Part shown: positions 7,840 to 62,747 of the stretch, one piece after another
Position numbering within the stretch: position 1 is the first letter of the stretch
Layout: each line of letters begins with the position of its first letter
Assembly (NCBI GenBank): GCA_964016885.1
Contig: OZ024747.1
Location: forward strand, 24,738,001 to 24,802,000
DNA: 64,000 bases
From: Eledone cirrhosa
Taxonomy: Eukaryota
Direction of reading: 5' to 3'
The notes under the pieces: model-generated
Database searches by the model: none
What the model saw: only the letters and a program-made list of their open reading frames with translations
What the model was told of the DNA's origin: nothing
Program-made: the position numbers and the translations under genes

Positions 7840-8160
7840 ATTTCGTTTCTGAATTTGGATGCGCAGACTGAGCACACAACACACACACAGAAACAAAATG
7901 GCGTAGGACAGAACAAAGGAGAGGCACAGAAACAAAGAAAGGAATCCCCAGTCACTGAAGAGGTCACAGAGTGTGTGACGAAAGAACTATGACTATATAT
8001 AAGCAACTATCTGGTTGTGGAACCAACCAACCAACCAACCAGAAATTTATAAATTTATAAATTTATAGGTTTATTATAAATTTATTATAATAAATTGAAG
8101 TGAAAGCAACTGGTGCGTGTGTTTCTTATTGGCAACATGACCCTCCCAAAGTATAACAAT
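7840..8160 (+). mobile_element. Solo PLE pseudo-LTR (PLE-2 family) with a short inverted terminus
   Basis: 7860-8160 is nearly identical to 46488-46760. 7840-7858 is the reverse complement of the PLE-2 extension end CAAATTCAGAAACGAAAT. (TA)n on both sides. Confidence 0.85.
7950..7994 (+). ncRNA. Type I minimal hammerhead ribozyme (family A)
   Basis: Stem I AGTCA/TGACT; core CTGAAGA; stem II GTCACA/TGTGAC; GAAA; minimal stem III; NUH triplet CUA. Confidence 0.8.
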
Positions 8161-8489
8161 ATATATATATATATATATGTATATATATATATATATGTAT
8201 ATATATATATATATGTATATATATGTATATATGTATATATATATATATATATAGATATATATATATATATATTGTTATATTTGGATAGGGTCATATTTGC
8301 GTAATATTGCCAGAATTAATAACAGAACACACTCACTGTTTGGTTGGTTTTCGCTTCTCGCTGTCTTTGATATATATATATCTGCGATCTAACTTACTCG
8401 GTCCTCAACGTTGCCATTGACTGACCGGCGGTCAAAAATAATACAGATACAATATAGACACAAACACATATATATAGTTTACATAATTT

Positions 8490-8530
8490 ACATAAATCTT
8501 TCGTTGCACATCTGCAACATCGTCAGTGGT
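8490..8530 (-). ncRNA. Hammerhead ribozyme motif (family B)
   Basis: Reverse complement of 12204-12244. Confidence 0.6.
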
Positions 8531-8796
8531 GTTATATTCATTGTTCCTCCTGTTGTGTTGTATGTCTACGCCATTTTTTTTTTGTTCAGTCTGTCTATAT
8601 ATTTATTTATTTATTTGCTTGTTTGTTTATCTTATTTTATTTTGTCTTCTTTGCGCATGCGTTTGCGTGTGTGTATAGTGTTATGTGTGATGTGTGACTA
8701 GTGTGTATAGTGTTGTGTCTGCTGGGTGACTAGTGTGTGTTTATGTGCTTGTGTATGTATTTATTTATCTTATTTTATTTTATTTTATTTACTTAT

Positions 8797-59975: not shown

Positions 59976-60884
59976 TTTTAATTAAGCGAAATTAGTGGAT
60001 GCAAATCTCAGAAAATATTGTACACTATTCGCACCTATCGCACTATTCGCACCTATCGGTACAAAAAATCGCACGACTGTTAATAATACTAGAAGTGCAA
60101 ACTATCTGTTGAATACCTGGTATATGAAGAGCAACCGATACGATCGGTCGGCGATCGGTCTTAATGAAGAATGAAGTGAAATTTTGGTCTGGTTGTTGTC
60201 ATCGGTGTTTCGCAGAGATGCCGGCACGAACAAAGGTGTCAGTGACACAAAGTTGTCCGCTTGAACAAAGGTGTCGGTCCGACAAAGGTGTCAGTCAGAC
60301 AGACAGTCAGACAGTGCCACAGTCGGTGCGACAAAGCGATCGATGCGATTTAAAAAAATTTAACTCATATGTTTACCTATATTTTCGCAAACTATTGATA
60401 GATTGGTACAAAAAATAGCTTTGATAATAAACATAAATTTTTAACGAAGTATTTAAAAAGCATTTTAGCAGTGAAAAGTGAAGTAATGTTTCACACTGAC
60501 GCAAGTAGGGCCGTTCAGAAATGACGTAGTCAATTAGGAGGAGGGGATTCGGCGATTTGACTACATTTGACTAACGTAATCACAATCACAAGAGTTCCGC
60601 CGAAAAAAATTCGTCATTTCTGGATTACCTCCCCTGGCGTCACGCTTACTACTCACTCACTTGAACGCAAGATTTATCAGCAAACTTTGATTATAAACTT
60701 TTTCCCGCTGGACCAAATTTCTAGATTTTTAAGCCAAAAGATGCGTAATGATCTACTGTTCATGATCATATAAGTTTTATCTCAGTTAAATAAAGTAGAG
60801 CCGCGCTGTACTGTCGTAAACAGACGATTGCCAACGAAAACACGACCACAACAATATTACTAAACGGACTACCGTCCGTTTAGG

Positions 60885-61790
60885 ATATTCTTACTTTATA
60901 TCACCTTCAAAAAATCCTTCGTAAACATAAACATTTTTTTTTGACGTTAGATTATTCATCCTCAATTCATTATTTTTTTCTCACTTTCATCTAACTTATT
61001 CATGCTCATCTCACAATATATCCTTACTTACATTACTTTTGTTTTTTTAATAATACATATCAACATTTTCTTTCTATCGCACATATTATTAAACCCTTAA
61101 ATATTATTCTTAATACATATTAACTTTTTCTTTCCATCGCACATATTATTAAACCCTTAAATATTATTCTTAATACATATTAACATTTTCTTTTCATCGC
61201 ACATATTATTAAACCCTTCAATATTATTCTTAATACATATTAATATTTTCTTTCCATCGCACATATTATTAAACCCTTAAATATTATTCTTAATACATAT
61301 TAACAATTTCTTTTCATCGCACATATTATTAAACCCTTCAATATACAAACCTTAACTTTACATTATTTTTCTCTTCGTTAATTTTCAAATTCTTTTAATT
61401 TATACATTATCTTCCAACGGTTTTTCAACCTCTCTATGTAAAACAATATATTTTTCTCAGTTATAAAAGCTATCTCTCTCTATATATCACCCATCTCTCC
61501 TCCCATCTCATCCTTCCTCATTATACTCCTCCCCCTCCACATTTTACTCTCATCTCCTCCTCTTTTTCATCCTTTCACCCCCCCCCCCCCAATATCACAC
61601 ATCAATCTAAAACTACTTTTCATATGTTGATTTAAAACTGCACTATCCACAAGTGTTTTTAACCTTCATATCATGTCTTCCTATTTTATCTGATGAAAAC
61701 ACAAATGTTATTGCATGATGATATTTGTTTTTGAAATGCGCATAATAAAATACATGGAACTCTTTTAACCATCTTTTGATCTTATATATT
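60885..61790 (+). mobile_element. 3' UTR/pLTR of the Naiad-like PLE
   Basis: Pyrimidine-rich UTR, about five copies of a 60-bp repeat (61050-61340), a hammerhead, and an end in (TA)n. Inverted homologue of 54085-54692. Confidence 0.8.
61682..61752 (+). ncRNA. Type I hammerhead ribozyme (family C)
   Basis: Stem I TATTTTAT/ATAAAATA; CTGATGA; stem II ACAAATGTTAT/ATGATATTTGT; GAAA; palindromic ATGCGCAT; AUA triplet. Confidence 0.85.
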
Positions 61791-62075
61791 ATATATGTAT
61801 ATATGTATATGTATATATATGTATATATATATATGTATATGTATATATATATATATGTATATATATGTATATATATGTATATATATATATGTATATATAT
61901 GTATATATATGTATATATATGTATATATATATGTATATGTATATATATGTATATATATATATGTATATATATATGTATATATATGTATATATATATATAT
62001 ATATATATATATATATATATATATGTATATATATGTATATATATATATGTATATATATGTATATATATGTATATA

Positions 62076-62747
62076 TAATATAAGATCAAAAGATGGTTAA
62101 AGGAGTTCCATATATTTTATTATGCGCATTTCAAAAACAAACATCATCAAACAATAATATTTGTGTTTTCATCAGATAAAACAGGAGAACATGATATGAA
62201 GGCTTTTTTTCATCCTCTCCACCCCCCCCCCTCCCTAAATAAAATATTTTTTCCTCGCACATATCCTCCCTTCGTTAATTTTCAAAATTTTTAATTTATA
62301 CAGTATCTTCCAACGGTTTTCAACCCCTCTATATAAAATATATCTCCTCTCAGTTATAAAAACTATCTCTTTCTCTCTATCACCCATCTCTCCCTCTCAT
62401 CTCCTTCCCTTTTCATCCTTTTCTATCCCCCCCCCCTCTCTAAATAAAATATTTTTCCCAATATCACACATCAATCTAAAACCACTTTTCATATGTTGAT
62501 TTAAAACTGCACTATCAACAAGTGTTTTTTAGCCTTCATATCATGTTCTCCTGTTTTATCTGATGAAAACACAAATATTATTGTTTGATGATGTTTGTTT
62601 TTGAAATGCGCATAATAAAATATATGGAACTCCTTTAACCATCTTTTGATCTTATATTATGCATACTCCAGTCCCACAAACTGTAGAGTGCTTCTTATCC
62701 GATATCTGCATTGCTTTATTGTACTACAATAAAACTCACCTCCTACA
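62076..62747. mobile_element. Non-coding head-to-head pLTR pair (family C) with two hammerheads
   Basis: 62076-62203 is the reverse complement of 62532-62660. Hammerheads at 62113-62183 (-) and 62552-62622 (+). (TA)n flanks. Confidence 0.85.

Follow-up and report, generated by a model that had tools for sequence, protein, structure and literature searches.

In a 64-kb window of the 3.0-Gb genome of Eledone cirrhosa (C7:24738001-24802000; unprefixed coordinates below are window positions), (TA)n microsatellites are abundant, and Penelope-like elements (PLEs) of five families, here called PLE-1, PLE-2, C, D, and E, are present. Insertions of these endonuclease (EN)-bearing elements mostly consist of two arms fused head-to-head, one of which stops at a short fixed 3′ end (S) and the other at a longer one (L). 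We hold it to be probable, though not firmly so, that a protein dimer nicks both strands of the (TA)n target and that one complementary DNA (cDNA) is made on each strand, usually from one RNA.

An earlier note on this DNA had described six units of the window as head-to-head 3′ segments with one short and one longer end, and all six were borne out (Table 1). In each of them, a minus-strand arm is joined 5′-to-5′ to a plus-strand arm, with one S and one L 3′ end, and every S and L end adjoins (TA)n. A 46-nt unit of the same kind and a family E element had been overlooked. The S and L arms of PLE-1 in the window differ by 4 substitutions in 1488 nt, and the arms of the family D palindrome by 0 in 204 nt.

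The expectation that the ends are fixed rather than scattered was confirmed genome-wide. In exact-match counts for PLE-2, an anchor ending at the S site occurred 23,759 times, with 12,045 S ends, 11,602 L ends, and 475 read-throughs of L. When the first 30 genomic matches of the anchor were read, 14 ended at S and 15 at L (29 of 30 together), one read through, and none ended elsewhere. The template region of PLE-2 contains 16 ATAT/TATA 4-mers, of which just those at +23 and +83 are in use; therefore, homology alone does not select the sites. PLE-1 has 3,381 anchors, and the 30 matches read comprised 13 S ends, 11 L ends at +60, 3 at +45/47, and 3 read-throughs; in 16 young long PLE-1 insertions, 15 long ends were readable, and the majority (9) lay at +45/47. 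Two ends each were likewise seen in families C (17,160 anchors) and D (1,644 anchors), with 30 loci read per family. The constant offset of 60 nt proposed earlier does not hold: S and L are 60 nt apart in PLE-2, 60 or 45-47 nt in PLE-1, 88 nt in C, 89 nt in E, and 136 nt in D. The proposed position of the sites inside the start of the open reading frame (ORF) applies to PLE-1 and PLE-2 (S at ORF +24, L at ORF +84), but not to C and D, in which both ends are upstream of the ATG of the reverse transcriptase (RT) ORF. Similarly, the proposed ATAT microhomology to the target is found in PLE-2 and at the S site of PLE-1, but elsewhere it is reduced to 2-3 nt, for an overall range of 2-4 nt. The perfect (TA)n runs on the S and L sides do not differ in length (medians 21.5 and 23), and RNA folding around S and L in four families revealed no common structure. 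A third sister subfamily of PLE-1 and PLE-2 (loci L160, L238, L262, and L076) has long ends 47 or ~62 nt beyond the S site. A tandem array at C1:132947048-132947579 contains 12 copies of a 46-nt unit derived from the L-site region of PLE-2.

The two ends are paired. By their coordinates only, PLE-2 ends that are neighbours in head-to-head orientation less than 10 kb apart formed 50 pairs on C1 (0-43.5 Mb), and 45 of these pairs were S/L (p = 4e-9); three of the five like-with-like pairs, on inspection, were separate insertions. Out of 140 end clusters of PLE-2, 120 were fetched, consisting of the first 80 in order, 29 with at least two ends, and 11 singles. The first 80, read by eye, held 91 PLE-2 insertions, including 51 S/L, 1 L/L, no S/S, and 3 with one non-canonical end. 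Across all five families, 151 two-armed insertions were read at both ends, of which 146 were S plus long and 5 like-with-like (PLE-2 87:3, PLE-1 22:1, C 17:1, D 11:0, E 9:0), so that like pairs are far from being as common as short/long pairs, in agreement with the earlier note. The PLE-2 count of 87 was obtained after removal of duplicates (L165, L245b, and L252b), leaves out L001-L030, and includes 5 insertions with a degenerate end. This pairing supports the further proposal that the template has two programmed sites, each used by one strand of the target, and the corresponding chemistry has been shown in vitro for PAc, a Poseidon PLE from Anolis carolinensis (Frangieh et al. 2024, PMC11167929). 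At locus L114:4050-6527, the L arm and body of a family E insertion directly join a PLE-2 pseudo-long terminal repeat (pLTR) with an S end, which may be a cross-family chimera or a deletion between neighbours.

In each family, the 5′ ends of the arms are concentrated at a single place, which is ORF -240..-222 in PLE-2 (19 of 174 arms) and -167 and -204 from the anchors in C and D, respectively. These hotspots coincide with motifs that we take to be initiator-like, and the AAGATGGCG-type motif beside the PLE-2 hotspot is presumably YY1-like. Three single PLE-2 arms begin at one identical base, and in two family C joints the start is preceded by a non-templated G of the kind that a cap would leave; the hotspots are therefore read as likely transcription starts. 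Drosophila Penelope is known to have a promoter within its pLTR (PMC2377424). We also considered cleavage by a hammerhead ribozyme as the main source of RNA 5′ ends. However, the predicted hammerhead cut lies within 94 of the 174 PLE-2 arms, and just 2 begin at it, compared with 19 at the putative promoter start; cleaved RNA is therefore not the usual 5′ end. Hammerhead-like core motifs were spotted by eye in the pLTRs of all five families, with a core base changed in family E. Their folds were no better than those of shuffled sequences (z between -0.06 and -1.1), and an Rfam scan of the window gave no hammerhead among the 150 of 152 matches listed, nearly all of which were microsatellite noise. 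The hammerhead is dispensable for PAc in vitro (PMC11167929). In the family E motif (51446-51494), CAGAAGA replaces the CUGANGA core, as it does in further copies of the family, and arm 5′ ends cluster at the 5′ edge of the motif. In the family D motif (53282-53428), which starts at the putative transcription start, stem II exceeds 100 nt.

Some arms are much longer than one unit. Two PLE-1 insertions, at C6:30043476-30070762 (~27 kb, 3.3+3.3 units) and C28:42003929-42066230 (~62 kb, 1.8+13 units), have seamless multi-unit arms and are each a single head-to-head insertion with S and L ends. Because such body-containing and multi-unit arms need a read-through multimeric transcript or a circular monomer, the earlier call for a template of more than one unit stands for long copies; a general need for ribozyme-processed or circular RNA is not supported, since short copies stop at the putative promoter start. 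None of 16 long PLE-1 arms halted at the putative start one unit upstream. The 14 units of the C28 array have 0-2 private substitutions each and share 4 variants in blocks. A circular template is plausible for long multimers only.

The two arms of an insertion are coupled in length. In PLE-2, an arm starting at the hotspot was never accompanied by a partner extending past it (0 vs 6.5 expected, p = 0.0003, n = 87). The same test gave 0 vs 5.3 for family C (p = 0.001, n = 17) and 0 vs 2.9 for family D (p = 0.03, n = 11), and the arm lengths of PLE-2 are correlated (rho 0.41). The arms also match in sequence. A subfamily haplotype is common to both arms in 30 of 31 PLE-2 insertions, and the median arm divergence is 1.5% within an insertion and 6.9% between insertions. 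Among the young PLE-1 multimers, 7 of 8 contain the insertion's own unit length and sequence in both arms; in these seven, the two arms are 0-3 substitutions apart per 4.1 kb (5-6 for the C28 array), compared with 1-23 between insertions. These patterns suggest that both arms are likely to come, usually, from one template.

Exact microhomology of at least 3 nt was found at 9 of 51 scored joints between arms, compared with 3.4% of simulated joints (p = 5e-5). The putative RNA 5′ end of family C begins with the self-complementary ATAT, and an identical palindromic joint without a loop, centred on ATAT, occurs at 716 loci; annealing of two cDNA ends explains it more easily than a fold-back does. 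In the PLE-2 pLTR, a self-complementary AT-rich stretch at ORF -90..-50 is a second cluster of joints, in which both arms start at the same place.

These data can be assembled into the following mechanism. A protein dimer, such as that predicted for PAc, would nick both strands of (TA)n, and each target 3′ end would pair by 2-4 nt with one of the two programmed sites, usually on one RNA. One cDNA would thus be primed per strand, in two priming events. The L-primed RT would trail the S-primed one and displace its leading cDNA; the RT of PLEs is not known to have RNase H. The 3′ ends of the two cDNAs may then anneal by microhomology, such that each becomes the second-strand template of the other, and single-armed copies may be those in which one cDNA remained very short. 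Short copies would be made from a capped RNA, transcribed from the pLTR-internal promoter and primed near its 5′ end, and body-containing and multi-unit arms from a read-through multimer or a circular monomer RNA. In a wider and more tentative form, twin target priming could possibly be the normal route of EN-bearing PLEs across clades, with one asymmetric dimer and one RNA, one RT starting at each of the two sites on opposite target strands, and each cDNA priming the second strand of the other. Capped linear RNAs would then give short pLTR palindromes, and hammerhead circles, around which both RTs would travel together, would give multi-unit arms on both sides (to 55 kb).

Several observations weigh against the twin priming of one RNA by a dimer. 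The two-armed structure is that of the majority and is not universal: the 91 PLE-2 insertions of the first 80 clusters also included 17 single-armed (11 L and 6 S) and 19 unresolved ones. About a quarter of the resolved PLE-2 insertions (17 of 72) are thus single-armed, and the earlier statement that every insertion carries a 3′ end at both junctions is not upheld. As several second arms are just 7-20 nt long, a single arm may be the limiting case in the distribution of arm lengths, with a second arm of zero length. The pair tables were read by eye, the later samples were picked for having two ends, and an extra L/L pair (locus L011) stands outside the 146:5 tally. At 31 of the 51 scored joints, the overlap was negative (a gap, an insert, or a mismatch). 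The start sites and caps are deduced from DNA. The partner was strictly the nearest arm in just 13 of 31 PLE-2 insertions, and an arm of another insertion was equal or nearer in 18 of 31. Different templates are indicated for the insertion at C1:181.3 Mb, in which a 139-nt deletion and 6 substitutions occur in the L-arm units only, and for locus L095, in which the outer S segment differs from the L arm by 10%. The haplotype match could also be explained by gene conversion between inverted arms or by two RNAs from one locus. Finally, the two strands did not differ in where PAc started in vitro, and start sites that are alike on both strands do not by themselves predict pairing.

The use of two RNAs deserves attention as a separate explanation. 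An asymmetric dimer, each subunit of which is tied to one start site, could prime twice on two separate RNAs, usually from the same source locus. This would account for the pairing and for the haplotype match, would make strand displacement unnecessary, and would directly cover the two insertions with discordant arms (C1:181.3 Mb and L095). However, two full transcripts would each offer an upstream and a downstream pLTR-ORF junction, and an arm bounded by the start should then often have a long partner, which was seen in 0 cases vs 14.7 expected over three families. We consider the use of two RNAs rather unlikely; it is viable only if short copies derive from short source loci.

The remaining explanations reduce the number of starts or move the inversion to a later step. 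A single L-primed cDNA could fold back, copy itself, halt at S, and join the other target strand, as in the self-priming proposed in PMC3846280. Many near-equal joints are indeed hairpin-like, the L arm exceeding the S arm by a few nt, the arms are near-identical, and pairing is predicted by this route. However, S must then lie within L, yet the S arm extended further upstream in 57 of the 87 PLE-2 insertions (the L arm in 27), and 16 L arms stop short of the S site. S-only single arms occur (6 of 17), the commonest family C joint lacks a loop, and RT starts at both sites in vitro (PMC11167929). Fold-back is thus contradicted for most copies; it may fit the near-equal subset only and is improbable as the general route. 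Trimming by EN has a similarly low probability in our estimation. Both arms would start at L, and EN would cut one of them back to S during resolution, in line with the tail as a product of EN-mediated resolution, as suggested in PMC8557442. The tail at one end only, the AT-rich S site, and the excess of L/L exceptions (4, including L011 and a PLE-1 long/long pair) over S/S ones (2) agree with trimming, but the trimmed arm would be detached from the target and would have to be rejoined. The in vitro starts at both sites count against trimming as well, and S arms extend further upstream, as expected of a leading RT. It is hardly credible that the inversions arose in the assembly process or by rearrangement after insertion. 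Assembly is difficult where inverted repeats lie in microsatellites, and the joints were read from the assembly only; however, the arms differ by substitutions and indels, their ends are unequal and fixed with ~12,000 copies per end type, 46-nt units exist, and the structures match those published for other PLEs.

The features of the window are listed in Table 1. In the PLE-2 S arm, the internal pLTR-ORF junction places the S site at 44949 and the L site at 44889, 60 nt apart. The S site of the family E copy is at 51519, 89 nt upstream of its long site. The pLTR of the longer family C S arm has its putative start at 61622 and a hammerhead-like motif at 61684-61750.

Table 1. Elements of the five PLE families and associated features in the window
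Feature	Positions	Strand
PLE-2 family L arm, 20 nt, of solo-pLTR insertion	7840..7859	-
PLE-2 family S arm of solo-pLTR insertion; pLTR ends at ORF +24	7859..8160	+
PLE-1 S arm: 5′-truncated RT + C-terminal GIY-YIG ORF, 3′ untranslated region (UTR)/pLTR; end = ORF +24	8271..10973	-
PLE-1 L arm; end 12521-12523 = ORF +84, through S site at 12461-12463 (60 nt)	10974..12523	+
Putative minimal type-I hammerhead-like motif, PLE-1 pLTR, spotted by eye; fold z -0.7; no Rfam match	12204..12244	+
PLE-2 S arm: partial pLTR, broken ORF (283-nt deletion), 3′ pLTR to ORF +24	41165..45165	-
PLE-2 L arm; end = ORF +84; 22-nt deletion takes out S site	45162..46812	+
Putative transcription start region, PLE-2 pLTR; 5′-end hotspot ORF -240..-222, adjoining AAGATGGCG-type motif; deduced from DNA	46510..46530	+
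Putative minimal hammerhead-like motif, PLE-2 pLTR, by eye	46580..46622	+
46-nt PLE-2 mini-insertion: S arm (-) joined to L arm (+), (TA)n at both ends	46981..47026	.
Family E Hydra-type PLE, single-armed; 5′-truncated end meets (TA)n directly; 3′ end = long site	48830..51608	+
Family D (Hydra-type) L arm of palindrome; end 52933-52937; offset 136	52933..53272	-
Family D S arm of palindrome; begins at TCATT initiator-like motif; hammerhead-like motif 53282-53428	53278..53486	+
Family C (Hydra-type) L arm of 53989/61792 unit; offset 88	53989..54692	-
Family C S arm: 5′-truncated RT + C-terminal GIY-YIG ORF, 3′ UTR split by nested repeat, pLTR	54690..61792	+
Unrelated repeat nested in family C 3′ UTR; right end fixed, with terminal hairpin	57272..60884	.
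Family C S arm of pLTR pair; offset 88	62075..62204	-
Family C L arm of pLTR pair	62203..62748	+

The families were classified by motifs read in their translations. PLE-1 and PLE-2 are mutually related, and their ORF encodes RT followed by a C-terminal GIY-YIG domain, with a CX4CX2C linker (CTNRKCIIC). The GIY-YIG core contains two Cys, and two His are also present, giving the CCHH pattern. By the linker and EN motif definitions in PMC8557442 (a CX2-5CxxC linker ahead of a GIY-YIG EN with CCHH), they are of the Neptune/Nematis type. Families C, D, and E have a C-terminal EN and a CxCX5C linker, seen as CNCx5C in the 5′-truncated ORF of family E, and C and D also have SDKT and RWI/RWR. By the definitions of the same source, which for Hydra are DKT, an RWK-like motif, the CxCX5C linker, and a C-terminal EN without CCHH, and from motifs alone, these three are assigned to the Hydra type. 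The 53989/61792 unit had been called Naiad-like, and this identity was rejected: EN is C-terminal there and in intact family C copies, not N-terminal before RT, a hammerhead-like motif is present, whereas Naiads have no canonical hammerhead, and the Naiad motif DKA reads DKT. The family C and PLE-1 proteins are scarcely alignable (E 0.007). A single ORF with RT and GIY-YIG EN, as in EN-bearing PLEs, is recognizable from the motifs, and intact PLE-1 frames of 1217 aa exist; in a Pfam profile search, RVT_1 matched weakly, below the cutoff, and GIY-YIG gave no match. The pLTRs derived from partial tandems, the inverted 5′-truncated copy, and the tail at one end are also those of EN-bearing PLEs. 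A homolog search made with dimerisation in view, followed by alignment, yielded 116 matches and zero invariant columns. For PLE-1, all 150 scored matches genome-wide were 99-100% identical over 240 aa, and many belong to intact frames of 1217 aa that contain an Asn-rich insert. PLE-1 is very young and is therefore a ready substrate for tests.

Other repeats accompany the PLEs. The 3.6-kb repeat nested in family C (57272-60884), presumably a Helitron/Helentron-like element, has 681 candidates genome-wide and an internal inverted repeat of 230 nt (57257-57486 / 58152-58381). Fragments of RTE-like long interspersed elements (LINEs) are located at 37626-40958 and 12551-13450; two are inverted around a (TA)n tract (39331-39611), and another adjoins the L end of PLE-1. 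A satellite of ~7 kb with a 45/64-bp tandem repeat occupies 17456-24658, and an apparently little decayed LINE-type RT frame of 879 aa is found at 30562-33201.

The core of these observations is known. In PAc, two internal RT start sites bound the genomic tail, which is carried on the inverted 5′-truncated copy; both strands are nicked and extended, targets are AT-rich, and a dimer is predicted (PMC11167929). The families described here are alike in the two internal ends bounding the tail and in the AT-rich targets, whereas PAc belongs to another clade and its tail is 30-40 nt, compared with 45-136 nt here. Neither a pairing of the two sites in single insertions nor the sharing of templates is reported in that study, in which second-strand synthesis is left open, and the accessible part of its supplementary text has nothing on tail, inversion, or initiation. 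The accessible parts of Craig et al. 2021 (PMC8557442) and Arkhipova et al. 2013 (PMC3846280) describe an inverted 5′-truncated copy at the 5′ end, head-to-head, with a tail often at one end only, pLTRs that include the first codons, and a (TA)n bias. In those parts, the description is qualitative, is ascribed to EN resolution or self-priming, and does not include S/L counts, coupling of arm lengths, or arm haplotypes. The Hydra clade, as described in PMC8557442, shares with families C, D, and E the C-terminal GIY-YIG, DKT, an RW motif, the CxCX5C linker, a hammerhead-like motif, and (TA)n targets; its units are <3 kb, compared with ~3.7-7 kb here, and its RWK reads RWI/RWR here. Minimal hammerheads in pLTRs were described by Cervera and de la Pena 2014 (PMC4209133), who also noted close hammerhead pairs on opposite strands and tentatively proposed circles as templates of more-than-unit cDNA; in contrast, the short copies found here end at the putative promoter start, not at the cut site. 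The accessible parts of a 2026 retrozyme preprint and of PMC13282606 add nothing on the ends. In the literature available outside subscription, we found no publication that counts S/L pairing or shared templates, although Evgen'ev and Arkhipova 2005 and Arkhipova 2006 may describe pairing. The quantified pairing and the coupling of the arms to one template are what we have not found in print.

The completion of PLE integration, including the second strand, inverted copies, tails, and tandems, is stated to be open in PMC11167929 and PMC8557442. With the pairing rule and the coupled arm lengths, this step becomes directly testable in the existing in vitro system. Two cDNAs completing each other, if true, would differ from the integration of LINEs and R2, which bears on PLE-based insertion tools. 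For annotation, treating each pLTR as one copy would double-count most insertions and misplace the 3′ end.

The closest parallel outside PLEs is the twin priming of L1, said to have been described by Ostertag and Kazazian in 2001, in which both target strands reportedly prime cDNA on one RNA and joining by microhomology produces an inversion. In L1, this is a side reaction with a start at poly(A) and a variable internal start, and the arms do not overlap. In the PLEs of this genome, by contrast, it would be the main route, with two fixed starts and with arms that overlap by up to many units.

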